Shown: positions 5,851 to 56,836, counted from the first letter of the stretch. The stretch: 64,000 nt of DNA from a candidate division WOR-3 bacterium (GCA_039802605.1 JBDRWW010000005.1:47462-111461), one strand, 5' to 3'. Made by a program: numbers and translations. Notes: generated from the sequence alone by a model not told the origin.

Positions 5851-6222
5851 TCAAAACCAATCCAAACCCTTATACCTATAGGCGTACATCCATCCACCCA
5901 TTAATATGCTTACAAAAACTACAACAGCCCAAAAGGACAGGATTGGAGCAACCGAGGTGTATGATACTATCCATGGGAGGAAAAATGCTATTTCCACATC
6001 GAAGAGTAAGAACATGAGGGCTATCGGGAAGTACCTTATGAAATACCTTTTACGGGCTTCGTCCATCGGTTTTTCACCGGATTCATACGGTTCATACTTT
6101 TGGGGTTCGGGTATGGCCCTCGGACGGAGGATTTTGTATATAACAAGCATTCCAGCTATGGCCAAAAATCCGAGTAAGAAGAAGATCCCCAAGGAGGTTA
6201 AATTTATCCAGAAGTTTTCCAA
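5851..6222 (-). CDS. nuoA: NADH-quinone oxidoreductase subunit A (solitary copy 1)
   Basis: 3 TM; PYESG, FLLFDVE, FLPW, GLDW motifs. Confidence 0.9.
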   Translation of the reverse strand: MENFWINLTSLGIFFLLGFLAIAGMLVIYKILRPRAIPEPQKYEPYESGEKPMDEARKRYFIRYFPIALMFLLFDVEIAFFLPWIVSYTSVAPILSFWAVVVFVSILMGGWMYAYRYKGLDWF

Positions 6223-6224
6223 TG

Positions 6225-6297
6225 CTCCCCGGGCAGGATTCGAACCTGCGACCCCCCGGTTAACAGCCGGGTGCTCTACCTGCTGAGCTACCGGGGA
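6225..6297 (-). tRNA. tRNA-Asn(GTT), no encoded CCA
   Basis: Cloverleaf with acceptor TCCCCGG/CCGGGGA, anticodon loop CTGTTAA, TTCGAAT T-loop, discriminator G. Confidence 0.97.
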
Positions 6298-6354
6298 GCG
6301 TAGTAGGGTATTATAAGGGTGAAAGGGTTTTGGGTTAGGGTAGTTTTTCCGTAA

Positions 6355-6360
6355 TATAAT
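6355..6360 (+). promoter_or_regulatory. -10 box of probable leaderless promoter
   Basis: TATAAT 9 nt before ATG 6370, no SD. Confidence 0.65.
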
Positions 6361-6369
6361 TCCCGGATT

Positions 6370-6957
6370 ATGAAAAGGTATTTAAAGGCTGGGGAAAAGC
6401 TCTTGCTCAACCATCCGTTTTATAAGGATTGGGAAAGCGGAAGGTTATCCGAAAGGGATCTGGCAATATACTCCGCAGAATACGAGCATTTTATAAAAGG
6501 GATCTTACCCCTTGCTTGGAAAGAATTGAGATATAACAATATCTACGAGGAGGAATTGGAACATGCGGAACTTTGGAAGGTATTCGGCAATTCGGTAAAT
6601 TATACTCCTACCAAAACCCCACAAACCGACGGTATGAAAAGGTTAATTCAAAAGTTCAACTCCATAAAACATAACAAACCCTCCCTAATAGGATTCCTTT
6701 ACGCCTTCGAACATCAACAGCCGGAGGTATCAAAGAGCAAACTTCAAGGCTTGGAAAAATGGTTTAACATCCCGGATAAAGGCAAGGAGTACTTTTTATT
6801 ACACGCCAGAAATACGGAGGAAAAGGGGATTTTGGAGAACCTTATAAACTCTATGAACAACGATGAATTCTCCAAATGCGAGGAAACATTTGAGGAAACC
6901 ATAAACATCTTGTGGGATGTTTTAACCGATATACAAAACCTTTGCCTTAAAGGTTGA
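6370..6957 (+). CDS. Heme-oxygenase-like diiron (CADD/PqqC/TenA-like) redox protein
   Basis: HPFY..W..G.L, EE..H..LW..F, LYAFE.Q.PEVS..K..GL..YF..H pattern typical of the CADD family. Confidence 0.8.
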   Translation: MKRYLKAGEKLLLNHPFYKDWESGRLSERDLAIYSAEYEHFIKGILPLAWKELRYNNIYEEELEHAELWKVFGNSVNYTPTKTPQTDGMKRLIQKFNSIKHNKPSLIGFLYAFEHQQPEVSKSKLQGLEKWFNIPDKGKEYFLLHARNTEEKGILENLINSMNNDEFSKCEETFEETINILWDVLTDIQNLCLKG

Positions 6958-7373
6958 GGGAACAACTCCTGAAATTTTTAGATGAAAGGTTTGGAATAGG
7001 GGAGGATGTTTTTAAGGGTTTTAAGTTTGTACAAAGGGGGGATGATGTTTGGATAATGTCGCAGGATATACCGGATAACCTAAAAGACATAAATAGGGCG
7101 GGTTTGAGGTTTGCGAGGGGGGTTTCAAGGAATATAAAGATAACAACGGCCGTCATCCAGCTCTTCGGTAAATACGCCACAAAAAATGTGGTTAATATAT
7201 CGGAGGAACACCTATGGGATTTTCTCGCGGGAAGGGATATAATTGTTGGAAAATTGGAAGGCGTTGAAAGGGGTCAGGTTATAGTGAAATTCGGGGAAGA
7301 TGTTTTGGGTTTGGGTTTGTACGACGGTGAGAAAATTAAAAATCAAATACCCAAGGCCAGAAGAATAGTTTAG
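6954..7373 (+). CDS. PUA-like RNA-binding protein (RsmF C-terminal/NIP7-like)
   Basis: AGLRF, KITT..IQLFG..ATKNVV, FLAGRDI, GQVIV..LGLG..IKNQIPKARR. Confidence 0.7.
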   Translation: MREQLLKFLDERFGIGEDVFKGFKFVQRGDDVWIMSQDIPDNLKDINRAGLRFARGVSRNIKITTAVIQLFGKYATKNVVNISEEHLWDFLAGRDIIVGKLEGVERGQVIVKFGEDVLGLGLYDGEKIKNQIPKARRIV

Positions 7374-7660
7374 AGTATGTCAAAGGATATGGGTTCTATA
7401 CTCTTCTTTATCCCGAGGATTTCAAAGTTTTCATCAACCTTATCTATGATCCTCTCCAATATGGAATCCAAAACGCTCGCGGTATTCCCCACAACGACAT
7501 AAACAACGGTTGCCAGTTGCCATTTATCGTGATTGTCAATTTCGGAGAACGCCGCATTAAAATCCCGGGAAATACTTCGCAATGTATAAAGGTATTTCCT
7601 CTTTTCCTTTAACGACCTAACAAAGGGGAGGTGTATTTCCAAAACCAATATTCCCAACAT
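7370..7660 (-). CDS. DUF503 (YlxP) family protein
   Basis: LP.VRSLKEKR, FN.A.SE.D.HDKWQ motif. Confidence 0.85.
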   Translation of the reverse strand: MLGILVLEIHLPFVRSLKEKRKYLYTLRSISRDFNAAFSEIDNHDKWQLATVVYVVVGNTASVLDSILERIIDKVDENFEILGIKKSIEPISFDIL

Positions 7661-7661
7661 C

Positions 7662-8606
7662 TTACGATTTTATAGCCGAAGCCCTTATGTATATACAGTC
7701 CCCATCTTTAACCACATAATCCCTACCCTCCAACCTTATGAAGTTTTTCTCCCTTGCCCCCTTCCAACCCCCATACTTTATAAGTTCTTCCCAGTTTATA
7801 ACCTCCGCCTTTATAAATGTGCGGGCTAAATCCTTGTGTATCTTACCGGCGGCATCAACCGCGGTTGAGCCCTTTTCCAACAACCAGCCCCTAACCTCCT
7901 TTTCCGAAGGTGTAAAGAAAACTATAAGTTGTAGGATTTCAAGGAGTTTTTGGAAAAGTTTTTCCGTAATATCATCAACATCGTCTTTTAAAACATTGAA
8001 AAGGAGATACGGGAGGTTTTGGCTTTTGAGTTCTTCATATACCGAATCCTCTATTTTGGAGTTTTCGGTAATGTTTAGAACTACCAAGCGGGGTTTTAAC
8101 GAAAGGAATCCATAGCCTTTTAAGATCTTTCTTTCTTCATCGGAAAAATCACCGGAGTTTAACGGTATCCCTTCGGATATGATTTTATAAGCCTTTTCCA
8201 AAACCCCTAAAACCTTTTCATCCCCCTTACCTACGGCAACCTCTTTTTTTAATCTCTGTATATTCCCCTCTAAAACTTCGGATTCTATGCTCAGAAATTT
8301 CAGCGTTGTATCCGTAAATGTGGTAAAGTTTTCGGTCAATCCTCCTACAACCTCAATAAAGGCGTCGGCATTAACGAGTTGTTGAAATAACGACCTCTCC
8401 TTTCCGTATGAAAACATCTTGCCAAGGGCATCGGAATCGTAAAGGTTTATGAAGGGTGGGGTAATCTTTTTTGGTTTGAAGAAATCAACAAGTGTTTTGA
8501 GCCTTTTATCGTTAAGCTTTAAAGAACCAACACCTTTGCCACCCGTTAGCCTATACAAAAGCGTACTTTTCCCCGTAAAGGGGGAACCGATTATATAAAC
8601 ATCCAT
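7662..8606 (-). CDS. YchF-like P-loop protein with DUF933/TGS C-terminal domain
   Basis: GSPFTGKST; LSLKP; FFT...EVRGW...AAGKIHKDL...FIKAEV...LEGRDYVVKDGD. Confidence 0.85.
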   Translation of the reverse strand: MDVYIIGSPFTGKSTLLYRLTGGKGVGSLKLNDKRLKTLVDFFKPKKITPPFINLYDSDALGKMFSYGKERSLFQQLVNADAFIEVVGGLTENFTTFTDTTLKFLSIESEVLEGNIQRLKKEVAVGKGDEKVLGVLEKAYKIISEGIPLNSGDFSDEERKILKGYGFLSLKPRLVVLNITENSKIEDSVYEELKSQNLPYLLFNVLKDDVDDITEKLFQKLLEILQLIVFFTPSEKEVRGWLLEKGSTAVDAAGKIHKDLARTFIKAEVINWEELIKYGGWKGAREKNFIRLEGRDYVVKDGDCIYIRASAIKS

Positions 8607-9037
8607 TAAAGGAGTTCGGCGTTAAGGACTATTTCCGGAACACCTCCCAAGGCAACGGATACAGGGCAACCCTTTTTTGCCTGCTCGGCAAATTTTAAAA
8701 ATGTTTCCCAATCTATACCCTCAACCCTTGCCTTTGTATTTAAAACGATTTTTGTAATCCTAGGACCCTCTTCCTTCATCTCCAAATAAACCTCGGCTTC
8801 CGTTGAAACCTCATTAACCTTATAACCGTTCTTTTCCAAGGTCGCGGATAGGGCCATACTAAAACAACCCGCATGAGCCGCCGCTATTAACTCCTCGGGG
8901 TTCGTACCCTCACCGCTTTCAAACCTTGAAGCAAAGGTAAAGGGACCCTCAAACCAACCCCTACCCACAACCATTTTACCCTTTCCATCCCTTAAACCGC
9001 CAGACCATACGGCCGATGATTTTCTGATTATCGCCAT
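8606..9037 (-). CDS. osmC: OsmC family peroxiredoxin
   Basis: GTNPEELIAAAHAGCFSMAL and AKKGCPVS. Confidence 0.93.
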   Translation of the reverse strand: MAIIRKSSAVWSGGLRDGKGKMVVGRGWFEGPFTFASRFESGEGTNPEELIAAAHAGCFSMALSATLEKNGYKVNEVSTEAEVYLEMKEEGPRITKIVLNTKARVEGIDWETFLKFAEQAKKGCPVSVALGGVPEIVLNAELL

Positions 9038-9057
9038 AGGTGGGTATTGTAAGGGCG

Positions 9058-9819
9058 TTATATATTTGATAGGTTTTCCGCAAAATATGTGGGGACTATT
9101 TTCAACCTTTCCACATCTTCAAGGGTATGTACGCCCGTTAAAACAAAAACCGTGGGTATGTTTAGCCTATTCCCGCCGATAATATCCGTATCCAGCCTAT
9201 CCCCTATTACTATTGCGGTTTCTATACTCCCCGAGAATTCGTAAATATAACGGTTTGGTTTTCCCATAACGGCATCCGGCTCCCTACCAGAAGCGTATGA
9301 TATAGCCGAAACCAAGGAACCCGCGCCGGGCAAGATCCCATCCGATTTTTTTATATGTGCATCCGTATTTGTGGCTATAAATGTTAGTCCCCTATGAACA
9401 AAGTTTGCCGCTTTTTTTAGTTTCTCATAGTTAAAATTCCTATCCAAACCCACCACAACGGCTTCGGGATTGACATCATCGGTTGTAATACCTTTGCTTT
9501 TTAATGGGTCAATCAGTCCGTCCTCACCTATTGCAAAAACCCTTTTTATACCCCTTTTAAAAAGGTATTCCGCCGCAACGACGGAAGGGGTTATAACCTT
9601 GTCGGGATACAAACCCAAAGCCCTCAACCTTTCGGCATAGTACTCCGGCGTTCTTGTGGAGTTGTTGGTTAAGAACACCAATTTTTTACCCATTTCCTTT
9701 AACCTCTTTAAACCCTCAACATTTTCCCAAATAACTTCCTCCTCCATCCACACAACACCATCCAAATCGCACAAAACGGTTTCAAACTTTCTAAAATCAT
9801 CAATTGTTATCCTTTTCAC
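9058..9819 (-). CDS. HAD-IIA hydrolase (NagD-like)
   Basis: DLDGV, LTNNS, GKP, IGDRLDTDI. Confidence 0.9.
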   Translation of the reverse strand: MKRITIDDFRKFETVLCDLDGVVWMEEEVIWENVEGLKRLKEMGKKLVFLTNNSTRTPEYYAERLRALGLYPDKVITPSVVAAEYLFKRGIKRVFAIGEDGLIDPLKSKGITTDDVNPEAVVVGLDRNFNYEKLKKAANFVHRGLTFIATNTDAHIKKSDGILPGAGSLVSAISYASGREPDAVMGKPNRYIYEFSGSIETAIVIGDRLDTDIIGGNRLNIPTVFVLTGVHTLEDVERLKIVPTYFAENLSNI

Positions 9820-10565
9820 CTAAAACCGTAAATTTTTACAATTGTGGGCGAAAAGGACGAGAGGATTTTTGAGGCCAAGAAGTCCCCAAAGGATATAAAA
9901 ACCTCTTCCTTTTCGCGGATTATTGACTTTACTATTTTATCCGCAACCTTATCGGGTGAAACGGCTCTACCAACGGGTTTGGACCTTTCTCCGATGGTTT
10001 TTTCAAAAAATGGGGTTTTAACCGCCGGTGGATAAACGTTTATGATTTTTATCCCCTTATCCTTTAACTCCTCCCTTAGAGACATAAATATAAACCTCTC
10101 GGCGGATTTTGAGGTGGCATAAATGTTCCATTTAGGCAAGGGCAAAAATGCTATAAGGCTTATAACATTGACGATTATGGCCTTTTCGCCGTTTTTAAAT
10201 TTTGCGAATTCTATTGATAAATCCAAAGGCGCCCAGAAGTTAACCTCCATTATGGTTTGCAAATCCTTCCAGTTGGAATGTAAAAGACTTCCAAAATAAC
10301 CCACACCGGCGTTGTTTATCAAGATATCAACACCATCAAGGATTTCATAGGCGGATGGTATTAAACCCTTTCTCGCGGATGCATCCCTTAAATCCAACCT
10401 AAAAGTTTTTATTTCGGGAAATTCCTCTTTTAGTTTTTTTAATGCCTCTTCGTTTTTGCCCACGGCCAAAATCTTCGCATTTCTCTCGTAGAGTTTCCTA
10501 ACCAAGGAATAACCTATTCCGGAAGTTGCCCCCGTTATGATAACGCCTTTCCCCTCAATTTTCAT
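9816..10565 (-). CDS. Short-chain dehydrogenase/reductase
   Basis: [18 protein letters not shown]. Confidence 0.9.
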
Positions 10566-11655
10566 TTCTTTTCTTTGACAATTCTAGGAGCTTTTTGTAA
10601 AGCTCCCTTTCTTCCTTACTTATACCGCGTGGTACTTTTATGGTTGCCTTTAACAACAGATCGCCGCTTCCCCCACCCGGATCGGGAATCCCTTTACCCC
10701 TAATCCTTGCGAATATTTCACCGTTTTGCAAACCTTCCGGGATTTTAACCCTTATTTTTTCACCGGTTAAATGTACAAACTCCGTTTCACCACCCAAAAC
10801 GGCCAATGGTGGCTCAACTTCAAGGTTGTATATTAGGTCTCTATTGTTTCTCGTGTATTGTGGGTGTGGTTTTTCCTTTATGTGGATAACAAGCCTCCCC
10901 CTTCCCCTCCTACCCTCATGCCCCCAATTTTTATAAACCACTTTTTGCCCATTAAGAACACCGGGCGGTATATTTACAACCCTTTGTACCTCCTCCCATA
11001 CAAACCCCCTACCCCCACATCTATAACAGGTTTTACCACTAATTCCCCTACCCCCACAGTTTGAGCAAACCGTATCTACATAAAAAGTACCTATGAAAGT
11101 CCTGTTGGCCCTCCTAATCCTACCGCTTCCATAACAAACGGGACAGGTATGCGGGTCGGTTATACCCTCACCCCTGCAAACCGGACATAAGACCTTTCTG
11201 GTATATTTAATCCTTTTCTCCGCTCCCTTAACTATTTCTTCCAGATCCAATTCCAAATCAATATGCACATCAAGGTCTTCCACCTCTTCATATACCCTTC
11301 TACCCCTCCCGAAAAGGGTTTCAAATATATCCTCAAACCTTCCAAAACCCCTTCCAAATATGTTTTCCAAAATCTCGTCTACGGTCATACCCGAGAAATC
11401 AACACCCACATCGGGTGCCCCTGTATCGGGATCCCATCCCCTATCATACATTTCTCTCTTTTTCGGATCGGATAACACCGCGTAGGCCTCGCTTATCTCC
11501 TTGAACTTTTGCTCCGCTTCCGCCTTTTTTTCGGGTGGAACCCTGTCGGGATGCCATTGCATTGCCAATTTGGCAAAAGCGGCATCTATTTGTTCTTTCG
11601 TTGCATTACGGGGAACGCCCAGAATCTCATAATAATCCTTTTTATTCGCCCTCAT
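10555..11655 (-). CDS. dnaJ: Chaperone DnaJ
   Basis: J domain with HPD, four CxxCxGxG repeats, C-terminal domain. Confidence 0.92.
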
Positions 11656-11656
11656 A

Positions 11657-12010
11657 TCACAACCACTTTATAGCACCCTTACCCCAAGCATATATATAAC
11701 CAACCAATAAAACCAAGATAAAGAAACCCCCTTCTAGCGCCGCCAAAAGCTTCAAATCCCCCACTTGCAACGCCCACGGGAATAACAATATAGCCTCAAC
11801 ATCAAAAATTAAAAATATTACCGCAACCAAAAAGTATTTTACGGCAAGTTTTCCTTTTGGCCACTTACCGGGCTTCACCCCGGATTCGTAGGGCTCCAAC
11901 TTCTCCTTATTTGGTCTTTTTGGACCCAAAACAAAGGACAAAACAACACCCGAATACCCCAACACTATGGCTATTAACAACATTACACCCAACTTCCAGA
12001 GTTCCTCCAT
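11657..12010 (-). CDS. nuoA: NADH-quinone oxidoreductase subunit A (solitary copy 2)
   Basis: [26 protein letters not shown]; start reassigned to ATG 12010 downstream of TAAAAT. Confidence 0.9.
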
Positions 12011-12091
12011 AAAGTTGTGTATTTTAAGGTTGTTAATTGTGGGTTTAATATGCCACCCCCGGTAAATCACTCACCCTTAAAATACCGTTCT

Positions 12092-12344
12092 TTGAGGGAG
12101 AAATTGGGTGAGGAAGCAACGGATTCGCTTAGTTATGGAAGCCGCCGAGGATAGGTTTGCTAGGAGATTGGCGGAGGAAATTGGGAAGTTAAGGGTGGAA
12201 ATGTATAACGAAATGGGGAAATTAAGGGCAGAGATGCACCAATTCAAAGGGGATATAGTTAAATGGATGTTTGTGTTTTGGATTGGACAGGTTATAGCCC
12301 TCGGAAGTTTGATGTTTGCAATGATAAAAATTTTTCGGGAATAG
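12092..12344 (+). pseudogene. DUF1640-like coiled-coil/TM protein, frameshifted or internally deleted
   Basis: TTG 12092 reads LREKLGEEATDSL, then the frame changes to VMEAAEDRFARRLAEEIGKLR...IVKWMFVFWIGQ. Confidence 0.55.
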
Positions 12345-12356
12345 AATAACGGCTTA

Positions 12357-13274
12357 ATGAAACACCTACTTGATATTGAAACCCTGCAAGTTGAAGATAT
12401 TTTAAAAATCCTTGATACCGCCGAGATCTTTTTAAAAGTTTTGGATCAGCCTTCCAAGAAATTACCAACGCTAAAAGGTAAAACGGTTCTGTTTATGTTC
12501 CTTGAACCCTCAACTAGGACTCAAATGTCTTTTGAATTGGCCGCTAAAAGGCTTTCGGCCGACACCATAAACTTCTCGCCCTCAAAATCCTCCATGCAAA
12601 AAGGCGAAACCCTACTTGATACGCTTTTGAACCTACAATCTATGGAAATAGATGCAATAGTTGTAAGGAGTTCTTCGCCGGGAGCACCACACTTTTTAGC
12701 AAAACACACAAATGCAAGCGTTATAAACGCGGGGGATGGTATGCACGAACATCCAACGCAGGCCTTGCTTGATGCCTTTACGGTAAGGAAAAAATTGGGG
12801 AAATTGGAAAACTTAAAAATACTCATAGTGGGCGATATTTTGCATTCAAGGGTTGCAAGGTCAAACCTGTTTTTGTGGAAAAAGTTTAATTCAGAGGTTT
12901 ATTTTAGTGGCCCTCCAACCCTTGTACCTAAGGAATTTGAAAAATTGGGGGCAAAAATTGTAAATTTTGACGAGTATATTGATAAAGTTGATGTTATAAT
13001 GGCTTTGAGGGTTCAGAGGGAAAGGATGGAGGGATCGTTTATACCATCTGTGAGGGAATACAGAAAATTCTGGGGTATAACGGTTGAGAGGCTAAATAAG
13101 ATTCCGGAGAAAACTATAATTATGCATCCAGGCCCCGTAAATTGGGGTGTTGAAATGGATTGGGAGGTTAATCATAGGGAAAACACCGTAATTTTGGATC
13201 AGGTTAGGAATGGCGTTGCGGTTAGAATGTCCGTATTGTATCACTTACTCGCAAAAGCGGAGGATATGAGGTGA
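12357..13274 (+). CDS. pyrB: Aspartate carbamoyltransferase catalytic subunit
   Basis: FLEPSTRT, NAGDG.HEHPTQ, HSRV, RVQRER, MHPGP. Confidence 0.96.
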   Translation: MKHLLDIETLQVEDILKILDTAEIFLKVLDQPSKKLPTLKGKTVLFMFLEPSTRTQMSFELAAKRLSADTINFSPSKSSMQKGETLLDTLLNLQSMEIDAIVVRSSSPGAPHFLAKHTNASVINAGDGMHEHPTQALLDAFTVRKKLGKLENLKILIVGDILHSRVARSNLFLWKKFNSEVYFSGPPTLVPKEFEKLGAKIVNFDEYIDKVDVIMALRVQRERMEGSFIPSVREYRKFWGITVERLNKIPEKTIIMHPGPVNWGVEMDWEVNHRENTVILDQVRNGVAVRMSVLYHLLAKAEDMR

Positions 13275-14431
13275 AGGGGATTTTGTACTATCCTTACAAG
13301 GCTTTAACTGTTAAAAAGATCTCATTGGCCTTTATATGGGTCTTGATAGGGGCGGTTTTGTATTCTTCATTTACATATTTGGCATATTATGTGTCGGGTT
13401 TGGATTTATCAAGGGTTTGGGAGATAAACGGTTTATTCCCCATACCCATATGGGCTAAAACCTTTCCAAAATACTTGCCGGAAAGGGGGGGAAATGTGCT
13501 ATTCCCCACGGATTTTGAGGTATTCAATTTTTGGGGAAAGGTTCTTTGGTTCTTAGGAGTTTATGGGGTTATATATTCATACTTTTCGGCGGGCATAGGG
13601 ATTTCAAGGTTTGTTATAGAGGAGGAAAGGGGAGACCCTTTTTATCCATTTTTGGATGCCTTAAAGGAATCGTTTAAAAAATCCGGCCTCTTCATAACAT
13701 CAACCCTAACCGTAATTTCCTCTTTTGTAATAGTGATTATAGTTCATCTGTTGATTTCGCTTTGGGGGAATTTTAAAGGTTTGGTTTATTTAACAGGTGC
13801 AGTACTGATCATTGTTTTTCCGTTTTTGGTTGTTTTGAGCGCCCTGTTTTTATACCTGATTTTGGGATTTTTGAGCGTTGTAATCTTTGGCCCCGTAGTT
13901 TCCACATCAATGGAAGGGGATACATTTGACCTGTTTTATGAAGGCTTCACCATTTTAAACGAGAGATTGGTTAAGGCCATATTTTTGGAAGGCATAAACT
14001 TTGCGGTTAAAATTTTCTCATTTTCCCTGTTTTCATATGTGTTTTTAAGGGCGGTGTTGTTATCTTTAAAAATTTTAACCCTTATATCCCCAAGGCTGAA
14101 ATTCATCCTTTATTCAAATATAGACCTCGTTTCCTTTCCACAACTCCATCCCCTACTATCGCAATACTTTGCCTTTATCATACCCCGTGAGTTTTTCGTT
14201 CCCATCGCCACCCCCATACCATCACCGCTTACAAATACATTTTCTATCGTATTTTCAGTCTGGTTTTTTGTTTTTATGTTTGTATGTTCGGCGGTTTATG
14301 TAAGCCTTACTTGGACGGGTAGAACATATGTTTATAGGGAAATGGTTAAGGATAAAGATGGCTTGGATATATTTGCAATAAAACCAAAATTGCTAAATTT
14401 CAAGGTTGAGACCCAATCCCAAACCGAATAG
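13271..14431 (+). CDS. Hypothetical polytopic membrane protein
   Basis: 386 aa with several TM segments; GTGA overlap with pyrB. Confidence 0.75.
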   Translation: MKGILYYPYKALTVKKISLAFIWVLIGAVLYSSFTYLAYYVSGLDLSRVWEINGLFPIPIWAKTFPKYLPERGGNVLFPTDFEVFNFWGKVLWFLGVYGVIYSYFSAGIGISRFVIEEERGDPFYPFLDALKESFKKSGLFITSTLTVISSFVIVIIVHLLISLWGNFKGLVYLTGAVLIIVFPFLVVLSALFLYLILGFLSVVIFGPVVSTSMEGDTFDLFYEGFTILNERLVKAIFLEGINFAVKIFSFSLFSYVFLRAVLLSLKILTLISPRLKFILYSNIDLVSFPQLHPLLSQYFAFIIPREFFVPIATPIPSPLTNTFSIVFSVWFFVFMFVCSAVYVSLTWTGRTYVYREMVKDKDGLDIFAIKPKLLNFKVETQSQTE

Positions 14432-15967
14432 CGTATTTATTTTCCTTTCTTCTTTGGTTTTACCGTTTATAGCCTTTGATATTTCGGATAACTTAATCCT
14501 TTCGGCGGAAATCATCAAAATCCAAGGGGTATCCTTATACTTGTAATTTAAAGATGTTCTCAGGGATGCGGGGTTTTTACCCCCTTCGTTTAGTATTCCT
14601 ATGCCCATAGCGAGTTTTAAGGATTTATAGGTGTATAGCCCTTCAAACCTAAGCCTCTCATATCCCCCCAAAAATGCTATGAACCTTACAAAGGGTGCTC
14701 CCAAACCCATCCCAAAGGAAGAATTCTTTACGACATAAAGCGTTGTATTCCAAAACATTAAATCAACACCTAAGAATGCCTCCATCCTATCATCGGGGGT
14801 TAAGGTGTTATCACCGTAGAGGAAGTTGTCCGCGTAACCCCTCACAAAATATACACCAAATTCAACCGTTCTCTTCTTCTTATAAACGCTGCCAATATTT
14901 ACAGGCTTGGGAGCTTCAACGCTTAAAGTTTCCCCTTTTCCTTTATCCTCTTCGGACTCTGTGGATTCTTCGTAGGTTTCTTCTTTTGCGGTGGTATCTT
15001 TCTCCTCGGGGTTCAAAAGTTTTTCAACGGTTTCCTTATTATAGTTATCGTCAAACAGGGATGGTTTGAGTTTATAAGCGGTGTTGTATTCCCTTTGCGC
15101 TATCTTGTAAGCATTATACTTATAGGCCAAGAATCCGTAAAAGAAATGCCCTTCGGCGTAATTTGGGTCTATTTCTATGGCCTTTTGGGCGTGGGTTATA
15201 GCCTCGTTGTAATCTTCAAAGAAGAGGGCCTTTATCAAACCCCTTCCCAGTTCCTCATAAGCCTCATACATATCCGTACCCGCATATTTTCCTTTGAAAC
15301 CCCTGAGATCCACCTTCCTCAAAACCTTTTTGACAACATGCGTGGGTACGGCATAAGATATCGCTTCCCTGCCGCCTCCCTCTTTGGCAAACACAACTCC
15401 AATAACATCCCCATTCCTATCAATCAAAGGCCCCCCACTATTTCCCGGATTTACACTCATGTTTAAGGCAATGGGATTTGCATTTTTATCGGAGGCCACA
15501 AACCCAAACATAACCTTTAATTCGTTGTCATGATAAGATGTTCCCGGATATCCCAGGGCGGCTACCGGTTCCCCCTGGTTCAAGGTTTCCCTTGAAGAAA
15601 GACTTATGGTTGGAAAATTCTCACCGGTAATCTTTAAGACTGCGATATCGTTATCCGGGTCATCGTATATAACCTCCGCAAAGTATAACCTATCAACCAA
15701 CTCTTTAAAGTTTGTAGCAGTAGGACCGTTTAACAAAACCGCTATTATCTTACCCGACCTTATAACATGACTATTGGTTATTATTGTACCGTTTTTATCA
15801 ACAAAGAAACCAGAACCCGTTGATACATTCCAATCCGCGACCACATCCCCAACGGATCTGAGTTTTGGCAAACCAAAGGATATTATCCTGATCACGGCAT
15901 CCTTTTTGTCCTTAGTTAATAGCGCATCCCAATTGGGTAAAGTTATCTGTCCTAAAAGCATTAGCAT
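14393..15967 (-). CDS. Trypsin-like (S1C/HtrA-type) serine protease with TPR, acidic linker and beta-strand-rich C-terminal domain
   Basis: GSGF, TNSHV, DIAVL, GNSGGP catalytic triad; AIEIDPNYAEGH TPR; ends LFGLGLGLNLEI. Confidence 0.85.
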   Translation of the reverse strand: MLMLLGQITLPNWDALLTKDKKDAVIRIISFGLPKLRSVGDVVADWNVSTGSGFFVDKNGTIITNSHVIRSGKIIAVLLNGPTATNFKELVDRLYFAEVIYDDPDNDIAVLKITGENFPTISLSSRETLNQGEPVAALGYPGTSYHDNELKVMFGFVASDKNANPIALNMSVNPGNSGGPLIDRNGDVIGVVFAKEGGGREAISYAVPTHVVKKVLRKVDLRGFKGKYAGTDMYEAYEELGRGLIKALFFEDYNEAITHAQKAIEIDPNYAEGHFFYGFLAYKYNAYKIAQREYNTAYKLKPSLFDDNYNKETVEKLLNPEEKDTTAKEETYEESTESEEDKGKGETLSVEAPKPVNIGSVYKKKRTVEFGVYFVRGYADNFLYGDNTLTPDDRMEAFLGVDLMFWNTTLYVVKNSSFGMGLGAPFVRFIAFLGGYERLRFEGLYTYKSLKLAMGIGILNEGGKNPASLRTSLNYKYKDTPWILMISAERIKLSEISKAINGKTKEERKINTLFGLGLGLNLEI

Positions 15968-16037
15968 ATGCAACCAATATTATAAAGCCGATGTGTTTGT
16001 TCGTTAAACAAAGCATTCCCATTTACAATAAACACCT

Positions 16038-16598
16038 ATGAAATTGCTGGAAAAGTTCAATTTTAGGAGATTGTACGCGGTATATCCCACTTCCGCGGTC
16101 GTGGCCACGGCATATGATGGGGAAAATAAGGCCGTTATGAGCTTGGTATGGCACACCCCATTGTCCTTTGATCCGCCTTTATACGGCATTTCAGTATCCC
16201 CCAAAAGGTTTAGCCACGATATATTTTTAAAGGCGCGGGCCTTTGCGGTTCATTATTTCCATTATAATTATTCCGATTTCGTTGAAAAGGTTGGTTCGGT
16301 TAGCGGGAGGGATGTTGATAAATACAAAGAGTTTAAAATTGATTTCTTCACCTCACCGTTAAACAATCCCATAATAAAAACTGCTTTTTTGGTTTTGGAT
16401 TGCTATTATGTTGAACACTATGTAATAGGCGATCATACGCTAATTGTTGGGGAGGTTCAAAGGGTATATTACGACGAAGGAAAAGTTGAAATAAAGGATG
16501 ATTATATTTTGCTGAAAGACAAGAGAACGGTCTTATATGCGGGTATGGGTGAATACATAACATCCGACCCAAAAACTTTGATTAAGTTAAGAAAGTGA
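16038..16598 (+). CDS. Flavin reductase-like (DIM6/NTAB) protein
   Basis: PLSFDPP, GSVSGRDVDK, GDHTLIVGEV. Confidence 0.88.
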   Translation: MKLLEKFNFRRLYAVYPTSAVVATAYDGENKAVMSLVWHTPLSFDPPLYGISVSPKRFSHDIFLKARAFAVHYFHYNYSDFVEKVGSVSGRDVDKYKEFKIDFFTSPLNNPIIKTAFLVLDCYYVEHYVIGDHTLIVGEVQRVYYDEGKVEIKDDYILLKDKRTVLYAGMGEYITSDPKTLIKLRK

Positions 16599-16601
16599 GG
16601 T

Positions 16602-18230
16602 TTAATCAAATTTTCCCGGAGAGTAAAGGCTCTTGTAAATCCAATAGCCCTTCAAAACCCTCCTGACATAAGCACGGGTTTCGTTGTAGGGTATAATATC
16701 AATGAATAGGTCGTAATCAAGTCTTTCATACTCGTAATCGCAAAGCCATCCGTTCAGCGCTCCCATACCGGCGTTATAAGACGCCAAGGCCAAAGCGTAA
16801 TCGGGGAAAACCCTTAAATATTCCGAAAAAACCCAGGCTCCAATTAAAAGGTTTGTCTTCGGGTCGTATGGATCTTTAATCCCCTTTTTGAACTTCCTTG
16901 AAAATTTTTTAACCTTGTCGGGCATAATTTGGGATAAACCCAAAGCACCGGCTGGGGATTGGGCTCTAACCATAAACCTACTTTCTTCCCTTATTAATGC
17001 TACAAATAAAAGGGGATCTATACCAAAGGTAGTTGAAGCCGAATCGATGTAATGGGAAAAGAACTTCTTGTTATAGGGGTAAGCGAGCTTTCCCCACCAC
17101 AAGGGAATCCCCTCACTTTTATCGGAAATGTCATATATGTACTGCAATACAAGGGAAGCCCTATAAAAATCCCCACTTTTCAGCAAATCCTTTAAATGCT
17201 TGTAAGCCGAGGGGATGTTTTTCAGGTAAAAATCCCTTGCGTATTGATAACCTGCGATTTTTTCAACAATTTTACCCATCTCGTAAAATCTGGTATCCCC
17301 CAATGTATCCCATAAGGCACCTTTCGACCATTTTGGCTTTATTCCCAGTTTTAAGGAATAGTAATTTAAAGGATCCTCACTTTTTATTATGCGAACATAA
17401 TAGGTGTCCCGTGTAATTTTGTATAGCCAAAAAGCCGCCCGAATCCTGTTAAAATCGCCATAACCGCCTTTACGAAAGGCCATATAAAGGTAGTTATAAG
17501 CATCCTCTATGTATCCCAAAATGTAAGCGGAAATACCCAGCCATACCAAACCATCCGATTCGGTGTTTTCATCAGCATAGGATTTTAATAGAGAAAATAG
17601 CCTGTAACCCAAATGTTTCATATCGGGTTTGGCCACTTCCGAGGCCATAAGTCTGAATGCCCTTTCTTCGTCCCCTATATCCGCCAAAACCTTTAAATAA
17701 ACCTCTATTGAATCGTAAATTTCATCGGTTAGGGCTTTTATCAAAGGTTTCACTATATATCCTCTCAAATACCATTTGGGGAGTTTAAGCATTTCGTCAA
17801 GGGTTAGGTCTGTAAATTTGCTCTTTGCTACAAGATAAAGGGAATACTCGTTTTCCTTTGTGGTATCGGCATACTTAAATACGCTATCGTAAAGTTTGTG
17901 GTCGAGGAATACGCGCAATTTGTTATAGTTGTCCAAAAGGGGTATTGCCTTCAAAGAAAACGGGTAATATGGGTATAACTTTGCGAGTTTAATTAGGGAA
18001 GATGTATCGGCGAATAATTCGTATTTGGCTTTTAAAACCTCGGGTATTTCGGGGCAAAGGGTGTAGTCGGTTTTAACACCTTTAAGGGCAATAAATTTAC
18101 AAGACAATGTGCAAGGAGGGGTTGGATTATTGCAAACCTCCTTTAATAAACCGTACTCCCCCGCCTTTATCCTATCATAAAGTAAAAACCCCTCAATTTC
18201 GGGATATGAGGATATAAGAAATAAGCTCAT
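16602..18230 (-). CDS. Soluble lytic transglycosylase (SLT domain, helical N-terminus)
   Basis: IREESRF, SPAGALGLSQIMP, ASYNAG, IPYNETRAYV. Confidence 0.9.
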   Translation of the reverse strand: MSLFLISSYPEIEGFLLYDRIKAGEYGLLKEVCNNPTPPCTLSCKFIALKGVKTDYTLCPEIPEVLKAKYELFADTSSLIKLAKLYPYYPFSLKAIPLLDNYNKLRVFLDHKLYDSVFKYADTTKENEYSLYLVAKSKFTDLTLDEMLKLPKWYLRGYIVKPLIKALTDEIYDSIEVYLKVLADIGDEERAFRLMASEVAKPDMKHLGYRLFSLLKSYADENTESDGLVWLGISAYILGYIEDAYNYLYMAFRKGGYGDFNRIRAAFWLYKITRDTYYVRIIKSEDPLNYYSLKLGIKPKWSKGALWDTLGDTRFYEMGKIVEKIAGYQYARDFYLKNIPSAYKHLKDLLKSGDFYRASLVLQYIYDISDKSEGIPLWWGKLAYPYNKKFFSHYIDSASTTFGIDPLLFVALIREESRFMVRAQSPAGALGLSQIMPDKVKKFSRKFKKGIKDPYDPKTNLLIGAWVFSEYLRVFPDYALALASYNAGMGALNGWLCDYEYERLDYDLFIDIIPYNETRAYVRRVLKGYWIYKSLYSPGKFD

Positions 18231-18814
18231 TTTTCAGAAGGCTTGTGTATAGCCTCTATTTGCAATTCAACCTTTACGGTTTTATCAACCACCAAACCCC
18301 CGGTTTCAAGTACCTTATTCCAGTTTAATCCGAAGTCAAACCTGTTGATTTCAAAAGATGCCTCAACCCCTATCCTTAGATTGCCCCAAGGATCTTTAAT
18401 TGGACCATTTATCGTGTAGGGAAAAGATACGGTTTTGGTAGTTCCCTTTATGGTTAAATCCGCATCCGCCCACCAAGTATTACCCTTTTTATAAACCTTT
18501 TTTACCACCATCCTCATTTCCGGATATTTTTCGGCATCAAAGAAATCGGGACTCCTCAAATGCTCATCCCTCCTTTCATTTCTCGTATCTATGCTTTGAA
18601 CATAAACCACGCCTTCGGCCTTCGTGTTTTTTGGATTATCCGGGTCGTACTCTATCCAACCGTCAAACTTTTCAAATGTGCCCACGACCGTCGTCACCAT
18701 CATGTGTTTTACCTTGAATGTAATGGATGTATGCGCTGGATCCACCACAAACTTCAAAGGCTTTGCATATACCAATGCCGGCGCAAGGGCTAATAATATC
18801 GCCATCCTTTTCAT
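18227..18814 (-). CDS. yceI: YceI family polyisoprenoid-binding protein
   Basis: Signal peptide; DPAHT..F.VKH, RDEHLRSPDFFD, INRFDFGL.WN. Confidence 0.92.
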   Translation of the reverse strand: MKRMAILLALAPALVYAKPLKFVVDPAHTSITFKVKHMMVTTVVGTFEKFDGWIEYDPDNPKNTKAEGVVYVQSIDTRNERRDEHLRSPDFFDAEKYPEMRMVVKKVYKKGNTWWADADLTIKGTTKTVSFPYTINGPIKDPWGNLRIGVEASFEINRFDFGLNWNKVLETGGLVVDKTVKVELQIEAIHKPSEK

Positions 18815-18875
18815 ATCAGCGGGTATAATAAGGTGTGAAGGGATACTTTTAGTAAATTATATGCCACTAAGATAA

Positions 18876-18893: not shown

Positions 18894-18900
18894 AGTTTCC

Positions 18901-54665: not shown

Positions 54666-55216
54666 CCGAACACCTCCTTTAAATCAACCTCTAAACCTTC
54701 CAAGACTTTGCTTTTAACTTTCCCCTCTTTTTCTGCAAAGGAATAAAGTTCATATTTTCCCTTCTCACCCAAAACCCATACCTCTACTGCCTTTTCTTCG
54801 GGATAAACAATCCAATACTCCTTAACACCAAAGTTTTCATATACCCCCTTCTTAACTACGGTATCCCTCCTAGTCGTTGATGGCGAAACTATTTCAACAA
54901 TCAAGTCGGGAACACCCATTATTGCCTTTTCCCCTATTATGCCAAGCCTTTCCTTTGAAACATAAACTATATCCGGTTGTAATACAACATCCCCACTGAA
55001 TAAAACATCTATGGGAGAAACAAACGCTTTACCTAAATTTTTCCCGTTTACAAAATTTACAAGGATTACAAAAATTTTGCCAACCAAATCCTGATGCCAA
55101 GGAGTAGGTGCGGGCATTTCTACCAACCTCCCGTTAATAACCTCATAACGCTTATCATCTTCAAGTTTTAAGTAATCCTCATATGTCCAAACCTTTTCCT
55201 TAACATCCACTTTCAT
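54662..55216 (-). CDS. Uma2 family endonuclease, copy 3
   Basis: Same motifs; ATGA coupling. Confidence 0.92.
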   Translation of the reverse strand: MKVDVKEKVWTYEDYLKLEDDKRYEVINGRLVEMPAPTPWHQDLVGKIFVILVNFVNGKNLGKAFVSPIDVLFSGDVVLQPDIVYVSKERLGIIGEKAIMGVPDLIVEIVSPSTTRRDTVVKKGVYENFGVKEYWIVYPEEKAVEVWVLGEKGKYELYSFAEKEGKVKSKVLEGLEVDLKEVFG

Positions 55217-55764
55217 TTAAACACCTCCTCAACATTAACCTTTAAACCCTTTAAAAGACAGCTTTCAACCTCCCCCTTTTCAACGGCTATGGAGTGTAAA
55301 ACATACTTACCTTCCTTCAAACACCATACCTCTATTGCCTTTTCACCCGGCAAAACTATCCAATATTCCCTTACATTATACTCCTCGTATATACTAAACT
55401 TTTCATACCTATCCCTCTTATAACTACCGGGCGATACAATTTCAGCAACCAAGTCCGGTATTCCAAAAAGGCGTCCTTCCTTTATGTTTTTTAAGTTTTC
55501 GTTTGATATAAAAACTATATCAGGCTGAACCACAAGTTTTTTAGAGATAATTACATCAAATGGGGATGGGATAATTTCGCCTAGGCCCTTATCCTCGACA
55601 AAGTTCCTCATCTTAGTTGCCAATATTATCAGTATTCTCTGGTGTTCAAAGTTTAGTGCGGGCATTTCTACCAACCTCCCGTTAATAACCTCATAGCGCT
55701 TATCATCTTCAAGTTTCAAATAATCCTCGTAAGTCCAAATCCTTTCCTTAACCATTTCCTTCAT
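55213..55764 (-). CDS. Uma2 family endonuclease, copy 2
   Basis: Same motifs; ATGA coupling. Confidence 0.92.
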   Translation of the reverse strand: MKEMVKERIWTYEDYLKLEDDKRYEVINGRLVEMPALNFEHQRILIILATKMRNFVEDKGLGEIIPSPFDVIISKKLVVQPDIVFISNENLKNIKEGRLFGIPDLVAEIVSPGSYKRDRYEKFSIYEEYNVREYWIVLPGEKAIEVWCLKEGKYVLHSIAVEKGEVESCLLKGLKVNVEEVFK

Positions 55765-56186
55765 CCGAACACCTCCTTTAAATCAATTTCTAAACCTTCC
55801 AAAACCTTGCTTTTAACTTTCCCCTCTTTCTCTGCAAAGGAATAAAGTTCATATTTTCCTTTATCACCCAAAACCCACACCTCTATCGCCTTTTCATCGG
55901 GATAAACAATCCAATATTCCTTAACACCAAAGTTTTCATATATCTCCTTCTTAACTACCGTATCCCTCCTAGTCGTTGATGGCGAAACTATTTCAACAAT
56001 CAAGTTGGGTGTCCCGAACAAACTCCCTTCTTTGTCGGGTTGAACGACGATGTCTTCCGATGGTATAACATCAAAAGGGGAAGGTATGACCTTTAAACTC
56101 CCTTTCATAACCTCATAACGCTTGTCATCATCGAATTTGAAGTAATCTTCATAAGTCCAAGCCTTCCTTTCAACCACATCTTCCAT
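55761..56186 (-). CDS. Uma2 family protein, copy 1, with two in-frame internal deletions
   Basis: Start MEDVVERK at 56186; lacks the MPA..HQ helix and the segment after QPD. Confidence 0.75.
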   Translation of the reverse strand: MEDVVERKAWTYEDYFKFDDDKRYEVMKGSLKVIPSPFDVIPSEDIVVQPDKEGSLFGTPNLIVEIVSPSTTRRDTVVKKEIYENFGVKEYWIVYPDEKAIEVWVLGDKGKYELYSFAEKEGKVKSKVLEGLEIDLKEVFG

Positions 56187-56257
56187 ACAAAGTAGTATTT
56201 TAAGGCAGAGAAGGAGTATATGTTTTAAACTTTTCGCCTTTAAAATACCCGCTTTAC

Positions 56258-56347
56258 GGAGAGGTGCCCGAGCGGCCGAAGGGGCGCGACTGGAAATCGC
56301 GCGTCCCCCCAAAAGGGGGACCGAGGGTTCAAATCCCTCCCTCTCCG
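56258..56347 (+). tRNA. tRNA-Ser(GGA), no encoded CCA
   Basis: GGAGAGG/CCTCTCC acceptor, loop CTGGAAA, long variable arm, TTCAAAT, discriminator G. Confidence 0.97.
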
Positions 56348-56350
56348 TTT

Positions 56351-56836
56351 TTGAAAAAGTACGTTTTGGGTTATCTCCTAAGGGGGGAAGAGATTTTATT
56401 GATTTACAAAAAAAGGGGATTGGGTGAAGGTTTGTATAACGGTTTTGGTGGAAAGATAGAGGTTGGCGAAAACTCTTTAAGGGCTTTAATAAGGGAAAGT
56501 AAGGAAGAAATTGGGGTTATACCCATTGAGTTTGAAAGGGTTGCGAGGCTGTATTTCTTTGACGATGTCGGTGTGGAAATGGCAGGTGATGTATTTTTCA
56601 TTACCAAATGGGAGGGGGAAATAGTTGAATCGGATGAGGCAAAACCCCAATGGTTTAAAATTTCCCAAATCCCTTATGATAAAATGTGGGAGGATGATAA
56701 AATTTGGCTACCTTTGGTTTTACAAGGAAAGAGAATAACCGGGAAATTTTACTTTGATGATTTATATTCCGATTCCCCAAAGTTAAAGGGTTATACGATA
56801 AAAGAGAGGATATTGGAAGAAATGTTTCAAATGTAA
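56351..56836 (+). CDS. NUDIX hydrolase (8-oxo-dGTP diphosphatase, MTH1-like)
   Basis: KKRG.G.G.YNGFGGKIE.GE.....LIRE..EE.G Nudix box, IPYDKMW.DD; TTG start after the tRNA. Confidence 0.9.
   Translation: MKKYVLGYLLRGEEILLIYKKRGLGEGLYNGFGGKIEVGENSLRALIRESKEEIGVIPIEFERVARLYFFDDVGVEMAGDVFFITKWEGEIVESDEAKPQWFKISQIPYDKMWEDDKIWLPLVLQGKRITGKFYFDDLYSDSPKLKGYTIKERILEEMFQM

Follow-up and report, generated by a model that had tools for sequence, protein, structure and literature searches.

In this genome, protein-coding genes systematically begin at, or within a few nucleotides of, the 3' ends of tRNA genes. None of the 46 tRNA genes is followed by CCA. For 29 of the 42 tRNAs not followed by another tRNA, an open reading frame (ORF) of at least 50 aa starts 0-5 nt past the discriminator. 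The gap is 0 nt once, 1 nt in 12 cases, 2 nt in 4, 3 nt in 9, 4 nt in 2 and 5 nt once; the start codon is TTG in 23 cases and ATG in 6. By chance, such an ORF occurs at 3330 of 50000 random positions (6.7%; binomial p = 8e-25). Seven further ORFs, all with ATG starts, lie 6-19 nt past terminal tRNAs and, of these, tuf (at 19 nt) is alone in being preceded by a Shine-Dalgarno site (AGGAGGT). The remaining 6 of the 42 terminal tRNAs have no ORF of at least 50 aa inside 20 nt. The observation made in the first-pass annotation, which described three such junctions and proposed a genome-wide tRNA scan, is thus confirmed, and had understated the case. The arrangement affects about two thirds of tRNA units and tight spacing is enriched across the genome's other tRNAs. 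Since the tRNAs adjoin start codons, excision of the tRNA would probably free a message beginning at its own start codon. We think it probable that most tRNA genes of this lineage supply both a promoter and a processing signal to the protein genes that follow.

The source is an uncultured hot-spring bacterium, with a genome of 1.65 Mb that is 90% complete and has about 96% of its bases in called ORFs. The window, by which we mean the whole 64,000 nt stretch analysed, contains three junctions (Table 1). Their gaps are 2, 1, and 3 nt, each start codon is TTG, and all three tRNAs lack CCA. On each point the initial description agrees with the sequence, with ARAGORN, and with Rfam tRNA matches, which convert to window positions 6225-6297 and 22096-22169. 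For tRNA-Ser, ARAGORN gave 56257-56348, and the acceptor stem and U8 set the bounds listed. As had been claimed, each tRNA has its own -10 box, with the hexamer 11-12 nt upstream of the tRNA 5' end in all three cases. Similarly, the junctions are too tight for a promoter or Shine-Dalgarno site, and neither was seen. Downstream of nuoA are three tightly packed genes (1475-5850, minus strand), and further genes of the tRNA-Met unit span 18901-21142 (minus strand). Searches of Pfam and NCBIfam returned no match for the 354-aa gene that abuts tRNA-Met.

Table 1. Features of the three tRNA-gene junctions, in window coordinates
Feature	Coordinates	Strand	Details
-10 box TATAAT, tRNA-Asn unit	6310-6315	-	12 nt upstream of tRNA 5' end
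tRNA-Asn(GTT)	6225-6297	-	no CCA; discriminator G at 6225; ARAGORN, Rfam
Gap CA, tRNA-Asn discriminator to start codon	6223-6224	-	2 nt
nuoA	5851-6222	-	123 aa; TTG start 6222-6220
Lipoprotein, tRNA-Asn/nuoA unit	5611-5850	-	79 aa
Membrane protein, tRNA-Asn/nuoA unit	4889-5614	-	241 aa
Protein with Peptidase_C25 and T9SS sorting domains, tRNA-Asn/nuoA unit	1475-4888	-	1137 aa
-10 box TAAAAT, tRNA-Met unit	22182-22187	-	12 nt upstream of tRNA 5' end
tRNA-Met(CAT), elongator type (G1-C72)	22096-22169	-	no CCA; discriminator A at 22096; ARAGORN, Rfam
Gene with C-terminal ...FGF	21030-22094	-	354 aa; TTG start 22094-22092; gap 1 nt (C, 22095)
ORF, tRNA-Met unit	20612-21142	-	176 aa
Putative uvrC, tRNA-Met unit	18901-20637	-	name from reading of translation
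-10 box TAAAAT, tRNA-Ser unit	56241-56246	+	11 nt upstream of tRNA 5' end
tRNA-Ser(GGA)	56258-56347	+	no CCA; discriminator G at 56347; acceptor stem GGAGAGG/CCTCTCC with U8
Gap TTT, tRNA-Ser to NUDIX start	56348-56350	+	3 nt
NUDIX hydrolase gene	56351-56836	+	161 aa; TTG start 56351

Promoters are found in front of the tRNAs, not in front of the abutting genes. A TATAAT-like hexamer lies 8-16 nt upstream of the tRNA 5' end in 41 of the 42 tRNA units, and even a loose TANNNT motif is absent 4-12 nt upstream of all 29 abutting start codons. These genes also have no Shine-Dalgarno site, the gap being only 0-5 nt. Leaderless expression was assessed using genes and starts from a crude custom ORF caller. 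A promoter-driven leaderless pattern was apparent for 117 of 442 other genes with an unambiguous start, compared with none of the 29 tRNA-abutted genes; the background count for the -10 signature is about 2.5 per position. As a share of unambiguous starts, the signature accounts for 26% in G000, 32% in G006 (a second family of the order), and 7% in G024, from the sister order. Shine-Dalgarno-like motifs show the opposite trend (13%, 19%, and 32%, respectively). The genome-wide promoter signature clearly indicates that this organism makes wide use of leaderless mRNAs.

The tRNA trailers have a shared sequence. The first trailer nucleotide is a pyrimidine for 46/46 tRNAs, the second is T for 43/46 and the third is T for 42/46. 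This Y-T-T trailer is independent of the presence of a following gene; the CA behind tRNA-Asn is among the few exceptions. Start codon choice is also distinctive, with TTG used by 23 of 29 abutting genes versus 17 of 117 promoter-leaderless genes (Fisher p = 5e-11). Leaderless initiation in model bacteria has a strong preference for AUG, which makes UUG an unusual start for a near-leaderless mRNA. We propose that UUG may predominate because its two U's serve also as the trailer U-U and because the purine called for at a transcription start is not required at a 5' end made by processing.

We then consider the enzymes available for processing. The RNase P RNA gene, of bacterial type A, scored 211.6 bits against a gathering score of 100, a match that speaks to presence of the gene only. 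The first-pass annotation had named RNase Z as the cutting enzyme. This part of the proposal is not supported: a search of this 90%-complete genome with the RNase Z model TIGR02651 gave no hit at E <= 0.001, and across the order's 19 genomes no protein scored above the family cut-off. The metallo-beta-lactamase-fold proteins of the genome belong to other families. RNase E/G was also looked for, in the same 90%-complete genome, and not found. The genome encodes two PolyA_pol/CCA-type nucleotidyltransferases (385 and 456 aa). Exonucleases are represented by two RNB-family enzymes and PNPase. Candidates for the tRNA 3' nuclease, and no more than that, are RNase Y and a UPF0173 metallo-beta-lactamase-fold protein, both encoded here. 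In two raw-read metatranscriptomes the organism is nearly absent, contributing 16 and 2 reads, all on tRNA. From two contig-based RNA runs the pieces obtained were patchy, and none of those listed spans a junction.

Related genomes carry many of the same junctions. Within the genus, the Lys-murA junction recurs with variable gaps (0, 0, 2, 3, and 3 nt), and Gly-rpmB and Val-ahcY are likewise recurrent. In G003, abutment occurs at 6 of 12 sampled tRNAs, and the tRNA-Met junction with the 354-aa gene is kept (gap 1). Two sister-genus genomes have abutment at 13 of 32 evaluable tRNAs; in the sister-genus genomes G012 and G018 an ORF with a similar N-terminus, judged homologous by eye, follows tRNA-Met with gaps of 2 and 4. 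The corresponding counts are 8/25 for G006 and 2/24 for G005. Outside the order, abutment was found for 0 of 44 tRNAs in a phylum-wide sample and 1 of 22 in the sister order. Since 9 tRNAs are common to both samples, this amounts to 1 of 57 distinct tRNAs. Abutment goes with a strong leaderless signature and does not extend to the sister order, which uses Shine-Dalgarno sites. On these genome comparisons, the arrangement is common to the order holding Candidatus Caldipriscus. The NUDIX gene is an informative example. It is tRNA-abutted in 3 genomes of the genus (gap 3 in G002 and 1 in G003). In sister-genus orthologs, the N-terminus M-R-R-Y-V-I-G-Y is opened by TTG or GTG in 6 of 7 inspected, and 4 of those 6 have TACAAT 6-8 nt ahead of that codon. 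Thus, what appears to be a leaderless promoter in the sister genus stands exactly where this genus has tRNA-Ser.

Logically, tight spacing could arise if starts were mis-assigned, so that a chance TTG in a U-rich trailer is reached by an open frame and the true start is downstream. The T-T at trailer positions +2 and +3 does raise the chance of TTG, 6.7% of the random positions noted above likewise have an ORF of at least 50 aa beginning no more than 5 nt away, and for 11 of the 29 abutting ORFs the family profiles are uninformative about the N-terminus. The random frequency is well short of 29/42, and NCBIfam families are matched by 24 of the 29 ORFs. In 18 of the ORFs, the alignment starts no later than residue 11 of the protein and position 12 of the profile. 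Examples, given as first residue and first profile position aligned, are L28 (1, 1), MurA (1, 1), Asd (2, 1), Prs (3, 1), AhcY (3, 2), PdxT (2, 1), L33 (1, 1), FadD (1, 1), Rrf2 (1, 1), NuoA (7, 7), and NuoH (8, 10). In the window, two NuoA models align from residue 7 to position 7 of 129 and from residue 11 to position 12 of 122, and MutT models align to the NUDIX protein with an offset of 5-6 residues. Substitutions are of the coding type from the start. Compared with G003, all three window genes have synonymous third-position changes from the first codons on (from codon 4 onward for the 354-aa gene). Alternative downstream TTGs are not conserved: codon 11 of nuoA and codon 6 of the NUDIX gene are both TTA in G003, where nuoA starts 1 nt past tRNA-Asn. 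Orthologs in another genus have the same N-terminus. Mis-assignment is, therefore, barely credible. Homolog comparison, which might have moved the starts downstream, did not do so; family profiles and codon-level comparison support the codons abutting the tRNAs as the true starts.

If the starts are correct, the message could still arise in other ways. A hidden promoter inside each tRNA gene, using another sigma factor or a weak T-loop element, would make the mRNA a primary transcript, with the 3' part of the tRNA as its short leader and no role for processing. The T-loops TTCAAAT and TTCGAAT are superficially -10-like and lie about 14-18 nt upstream of start codons. However, the T-loop hexamers have no A at the second position, whereas promoter-leaderless genes of this genome have a clear TATAAT-like box at 6-9 nt, and a strong consensus promoter already precedes 41 of 42 units. 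We consider this explanation quite improbable. It is also unlikely, in our view, that tRNA and gene are co-transcribed without a precise cut at the discriminator. Abutment would then be a by-product of genome compaction and co-opted tRNA promoters, with Shine-Dalgarno-independent internal initiation on uncut, or differently cut, RNA and tRNA 3' ends made by exonucleases. The compact genome, the exonucleases present, and the failure to find RNase Z or RNase E/G all fit. On the other hand, internal initiation is poor directly behind a folded tRNA where there is no Shine-Dalgarno site, so starts 0-5 nt beyond the tRNA would probably be poor sites of this kind. Exonucleolytic maturation would also destroy essential messages, such as murA, rpmB, prs, and asd. 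Moreover, a Y-T-T trailer across 46 tRNAs, the tRNA cluster included, points to a site-specific step, the sister-genus NUDIX ortholog has its leaderless promoter at the same place, and the pattern tracks a strong leaderless signature and is not seen in the Shine-Dalgarno-using sister order.

We favour transcription from the tRNA promoter followed by processing. In this scheme, a strong promoter just upstream of the tRNA would produce one RNA, carrying the tRNA and the downstream gene or operon. An endonuclease, probably recognising the tRNA body plus the pyrimidine-U-U trailer, would cut at or beside the discriminator. One product would be a CCA-less tRNA, to be completed by the CCA-type nucleotidyltransferases. 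The other would be an mRNA with a 5' monophosphate and a leader of 0-5 nt, translated by the leaderless route that already serves many promoter-driven genes. Of these steps, co-transcription, cleavage and its site, the chemistry of the new 5' end, and translation of the released mRNA are inferred.

The arrangement resembles tRNA punctuation of animal mitochondrial transcripts, reportedly described by Ojala, Montoya and Attardi in 1981. A companion paper from the same year (Montoya, Ojala and Attardi) is cited in the reference list of PMC4633059. In both systems, CCA-less tRNA genes adjoin coding sequences and CCA is added afterwards; mRNAs have no Shine-Dalgarno site and, here presumably, no leader, and tRNA excision is proposed to set their 5' ends. 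Unlike animal mitochondria, with one genome-length transcript, each tRNA here has its own promoter, and the setting is a free-living bacterium with a 1.65-Mb genome. In addition, the message is punctuated on its 5' side only, the search of this genome and the order's 19 turned up no RNase Z homolog, and the start is mostly UUG, overlapping the conserved pyrimidine-U-U trailer. In E. coli, tRNA-tufB is a tRNA-mRNA operon in which the tRNA promoter drives a downstream protein gene. The tRNA-Gln of this genome, followed by 19 nt with AGGAGGT and then tuf, is similar. Conversely, the 29 units described here have gaps of 0-5 nt and no Shine-Dalgarno site, whereas in operons of the tRNA-tufB type the tRNA is followed by a spacer that carries one.

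Translation without a 5' leader is also shared with the promoter-driven leaderless mRNAs of Actinobacteria and archaea, covered in PMC4633059; PMC4681348 counts 264 leaderless mRNAs in S. coelicolor versus 5 in E. coli. In Actinobacteria and archaea the 5' end is the transcription start and the start codon AUG or GUG, whereas the tRNA-abutted genes here would have a processed 5' end and mostly start with UUG. Propionibacterium acnes, according to passages of PMC3848588, similarly has CCA-less tRNA genes and no obvious tRNase Z, and its authors propose that an unidentified endonuclease cuts 3' of the tRNAs. Systematic abutment of coding sequences, as seen here, is not described for P. acnes in those passages.

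Gene callers that bar tRNA-adjacent starts, or penalise TTG, will mis-annotate such genomes. If processing is real, expression of murA, rpmB, rpmG, prs, asd, purB, ahcY, nuoA, and nuoH would be tied to tRNA promoters, and the start-codon rules of leaderless translation would widen to UUG. An undiscovered tRNA 3' endonuclease would also be implied, because 46/46 tRNAs lack CCA and neither RNase Z nor RNase E/G was found. We regard as evenly balanced the broadest form of the proposal, that the order with Candidatus Caldipriscus (WOR-3/Caldipriscota) has an independent, genome-wide, mitochondria-like tRNA punctuation. Here, tRNAs would be interchangeable promoter-plus-cleavage cassettes that supply leaderless mRNAs for dozens of housekeeping operons, a nuclease unrelated to RNase Z would read the tRNA and its pyrimidine-U-U trailer, and ribosomes would start at a 5'-proximal UUG on 5'-monophosphate RNA. 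Punctuation by tRNAs, if processing is real, would not be just an oddity of shrunken organelle genomes; a free-living hyperthermophile would have reached it independently, once reliant on leaderless translation.

Each of the three tRNA/TTG junctions in the window is exactly as the first-pass annotation described. The gaps are the same, CCA is absent after every tRNA, and each tRNA has its own -10 hexamer, 11-12 nt to the 5' side. Note that, for tRNA-Ser, ARAGORN sets limits one base wider on either side; the acceptor stem and U8 fix the discriminator at 56347. The nuoA gene, behind tRNA-Asn, is separate from other nuo genes, with nuoH on another contig, behind tRNA-Val(GAC).

Coordinates of the tRNA/gene junctions and of other features discussed in the text. 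Plain numbers are window positions; G, genome (G000 holds the window); C, contig; L, locus.
Feature	Location	Strand	Remark
tRNA-Asn(GTT)	6225-6297	minus	followed by CA, then TTG at 6222, the start of nuoA
tRNA-Met(CAT)	22096-22169	minus	followed by C, then TTG at 22094, the start of a 354-aa ORF
tRNA-Ser(GGA)	56258-56347	plus	followed by TTT, then TTG at 56351, the start of a NUDIX gene
1137-aa protein	1475-4888	minus	ends the tRNA-Asn-nuoA unit; Peptidase_C25 and type IX secretion sorting domains
TATAAT and ATG, non-tRNA gene	6354-6372		ATG at 6370
TATAAT and ATG, non-tRNA gene	22228-22245		ATG at 22243
93-aa gene	L009:1575-1853 (G000:C2:274517-274795)		abuts tRNA-Val(TAC)
160-aa ORF	L052:403-882 (G000:C5:46697-47176)		abuts tRNA-Leu(CAG)
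CCA-type nucleotidyltransferase, 385 aa	G000:C2:23808-24971
CCA-type nucleotidyltransferase, 456 aa	G000:C1:44184-45590		HD domain
Beta-CASP/RMMBL nuclease, 434 aa	G000:C8:20128-21432
Beta-CASP/RMMBL gene, apparently broken	G004:C26:491-1353; G014:C91/C124		internal stops, split pieces
T-runs of 6-8, examples	G000:C3:101767; G000:C12:9885; G000:C14:7833		behind non-abutting tRNAs

The same arrangement was sought throughout G000 (1.65 Mb in 23 contigs, 41% G+C, judged 90% complete). ARAGORN finds 46 tRNA genes, none of which encodes CCA. Four, inside an Ile-Pro-Pro-Pro-Val cluster, precede another tRNA and were left out, so that 42 terminal tRNAs were considered. Behind 29 of these, an ORF of at least 50 aa starts 0-5 nt past the discriminator. 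By chance, such an ORF is met at 3330 of 50000 random genome positions (6.7%; binomial p = 8e-25). Abutment is thus systematic, a point that the first-pass annotation had set out for checking. The gap is most often 1 nt (12 cases) or 3 nt (nine), and otherwise 2 nt (four), 4 nt (two), 0 nt or 5 nt (one each). TTG is the start codon of 23 abutting ORFs and ATG of six. Seven further ORFs begin 6-19 nt behind terminal tRNAs, every one with ATG, and only tuf, among these, has a Shine-Dalgarno site (AGGAGGT). For six terminal tRNAs there is no ORF of at least 50 aa within 20 nt.

The expectation that each tRNA has its own -10 box, with no room for a promoter before the gene, also holds beyond the window. 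A near-consensus hexamer, typically ccTTATAATAtCC, is located 8-16 nt (mostly 9-13 nt) 5' of the mature tRNA in 41 of 42 tRNA units. Conversely, the 29 abutting start codons all lack even a loose TANNNT 4-12 nt upstream, a stretch taken up by two G+C-rich helices, the T stem and the acceptor stem. Hence, the tRNA promoter is the only visible promoter of the abutting genes.

Elsewhere in the genome, -10 elements are often positioned close to start codons. Note that these statistics rest on a crude custom ORF caller, which gave 1647 genes, 442 of them with an unambiguous start. For the latter, spacers of 6, 7, 8, and 9 nt between -10 element and start codon occur 21, 16, 44, and 36 times, over a background of about 2.5. 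Hence, the transcription start should fall on, or beside, the start codon. Words resembling the Shine-Dalgarno sequence peak 5-9 nt upstream in a different set of genes. Judged from these signals, the organism uses leaderless mRNAs. Two non-tRNA genes of the window, each with TATAAT 9-10 nt before an ATG, are typical of this genome-wide class; the ATG at 22243 is the likely secD start, within a longer ORF.

We scanned the 36 ORFs downstream of tRNAs against NCBIfam, and 24 of the 29 abutting ORFs matched a family. In 18, the match begins no later than residue 11 and profile position 12 (L28, MurA, GalE-like epimerase, PurB, Asd, GFO/IDH-type dehydrogenase, heavy-metal ATPase, CC/Se-motif protein, Prs, NuoH, 2-hydroxyacid dehydrogenase, Rrf2 regulator, FadD, NuoA, CcmE, L33, AhcY, and PdxT). 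Six matches are uninformative about the N-terminus and five ORFs have no family. Within the window, NuoA aligns from residue 7 to position 7 of 129, and from 11 to 12 of 122, in two profiles; the NUDIX alignment is offset by 5-6 residues. The 354-aa protein has no family in NCBIfam or Pfam. Compared codon by codon with G003, another genome of the genus, all three window genes carry third-position changes that are synonymous, starting at the very first codons. The sole nearby alternative starts, TTG at nuoA codon 11 and NUDIX codon 6, are TTA in G003. We conclude, from profile fit and codon comparison, that the abutting start codons, including the TTG codons proposed initially, are genuine.

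Two abutting ORFs deserve mention in their own right. The 93-aa gene behind tRNA-Val(TAC) encodes a member of NF041239, the CC/Se-motif (seleno)protein family; its junction is present in G002, also of the genus, and absent from G003. The 160-aa ORF behind tRNA-Leu(CAG) lies shortly upstream of the window. Of the 417 positions in the profile for diaminopimelate decarboxylase (lysA), it matches only 24-69 and 315-410, and it resembles a lysA remnant with an internal deletion.

The bases following the tRNAs are strongly biased. In G000, the first base after the discriminator is C or T in all 46 cases, the second is T in 43, and the third is T in 42, whether or not a gene lies behind the tRNA. ATG starts are never less than 3 nt from the discriminator (Y-T-T-ATG). 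TTG starts occur at 0-4 nt, and their own T-T furnishes the motif. TTG opens 23 of 29 abutting genes, compared with 17 of 117 genes that have a -10-like box close upstream of the start codon (p = 5e-11). Transcription usually starts with a purine; a processed 5' end need not. We take the pyrimidine-T-T trailer to be a determinant of tRNA processing or termination that the start codon shares. By our count, 6 of the 13 terminal tRNAs with no abutting gene, and none of the 29 with one, have a run of at least six T behind them. These runs look like terminators; combined with such a run, the tRNA acceptor/T helix may serve as an intrinsic terminator.

The NUDIX gene provides a case of exchange. In three genomes of the genus its ortholog abuts tRNA-Ser, with gaps of 3, 3, and 1 nt. 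In the sister genus, TTG or GTG opens the same N-terminus (M-R-R-Y-V-I-G-Y compared with M-K-K-Y-V-L-G-Y) in six of seven orthologs inspected. Four of those six have TACAAT 6-8 nt upstream and no tRNA nearby. Thus, ahead of one and the same start codon, the tRNA module and the leaderless promoter take the same place.

Abutment is conserved in relatives. The NCBI lineage is Candidatus Caldipriscota, also called WOR-3 (PMC12285271). The MurA protein of G000 shares 94% identity with its counterpart in one MAG, and 77% with the one in a MAG titled Candidatus Caldipriscus sp. Within the genus, junctions recur with varying gaps (Lys-murA, 0, 0, 2, 3, and 3 nt; Gly-rpmB, 3-4 nt; Val-ahcY, 1 nt). Six of 12 sampled tRNAs in G003 are abutted, including those of Asn-nuoA and Met-354-aa gene, both with gaps of 1 nt. 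Two genomes of the sister genus have abutment at 13 of 32 evaluable tRNAs. In the second family of the order, the counts are 8 of 25 (G006) and 2 of 24 (G005). Several abutting genes of relatives have near-complete N-termini by Pfam (e.g. NuoH, Cmk, GatC, enoyl-CoA hydratase, L19, and MGDG synthase). The cases of a helicase C-terminal domain and of a cytochrome c assembly protein, in which 32 profile positions are missing, are doubtful. Outside the order, abutment was seen at 0 of 44 tRNAs in a phylum-wide sample and 1 of 22 in the sister order of the same class; nine tRNAs are shared, giving 1 of 57 distinct. Some of these tRNAs have an encoded CCA. Among unambiguous starts, the share with the leaderless -10 signature is 26% in G000 and 32% in G006, compared with 7% in sister-order genome G024; motifs resembling the Shine-Dalgarno sequence account for 13%, 19%, and 32%. 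Therefore, abutment is found where leaderless usage is high, among genomes that are relatives rather than independent samples.

Which enzyme might cut at the junctions? G000 encodes RNase P RNA and two CCA-type nucleotidyltransferases. Separate CC-adding and A-adding enzymes are known from some other bacteria, and the two proteins may divide the activities in this way. RNase Z was the cutter proposed initially, and this is not supported. Profile TIGR02651 has no match in G000 and none over the cut-off in 19 genomes of the order; in the six other genomes of the class, the best E value is 1.8e-5. Elsewhere in the phylum, short RNase Z-like proteins occur in other classes, with scores of at most 115 bits and under the curated cut-off. 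RNase E/G, considered as a cutter for its preference for U-rich sites, was dropped since PF10150 found nothing in G000. The presence of a beta-CASP/RMMBL nuclease does not track the trait. It is widespread (29 of 41 phylum genomes) and found in none of seven genomes of the second family, though G006 there has abutting genes. Its gene is apparently broken in two genomes, G004 and G014, and no copy was detected in G003. RNase Y (all 19 genomes of the order) and a UPF0173 metallo-beta-lactamase-fold protein (220 aa in G000; 17 of 19) are candidates only for the tRNA 3' nuclease, neither being specific. Exonucleases of G000 comprise two RNB-family proteins and PNPase, with no separate RNase PH. 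Propionibacterium acnes likewise combines CCA-less tRNAs with no obvious tRNase Z, and an endonuclease, not identified, is proposed to act 3' of these tRNAs (PMC3848588).

RNA data were inspected over window positions 4500-24499. Raw-read runs X4 and X5 gave 16 and two reads, all partial matches to tRNA-Asn, 90-99% alike, and probably tRNAs of other organisms. Contig runs X1 and X2 gave patchy coverage, with pieces inside genes (e.g. 5311-5811 and 14151-15905); none of the pieces listed spans 6222/6225 or 22094/22096. We infer co-transcription of tRNA and gene, the cut, and the 5' chemistry.

Among known systems, tRNA punctuation in animal mitochondria comes closest; there, excision of tRNAs sets mRNA 5' ends. 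In mitochondria, however, RNase Z is the cutter, and none was found in G000. Classical bacterial tRNA-mRNA operons differ in keeping a Shine-Dalgarno spacer; in G000, only tRNA-Gln-tuf has one. Full-text literature searches, in the portions they returned, held no report of a genome-wide bacterial arrangement of this kind, and the main text of the paper on a cultured WOR-3 isolate (PMC12285271) makes no mention of leaderless, tRNA, Shine-Dalgarno, or RNase. Overall, the original observation is confirmed and greatly extended, from three window junctions to the whole genome. The interpretation, that tRNA processing may generate near-leaderless mRNAs, receives partial support: both the arrangement and the logic behind it hold, and RNase Z, with no match in G000 and none over the cut-off in the order, does not. 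Because of the latter, and since co-transcription is itself deduced, we liken abutment to punctuation and do not equate the two. Most likely, tRNA-gene abutment in this organism works like punctuation.
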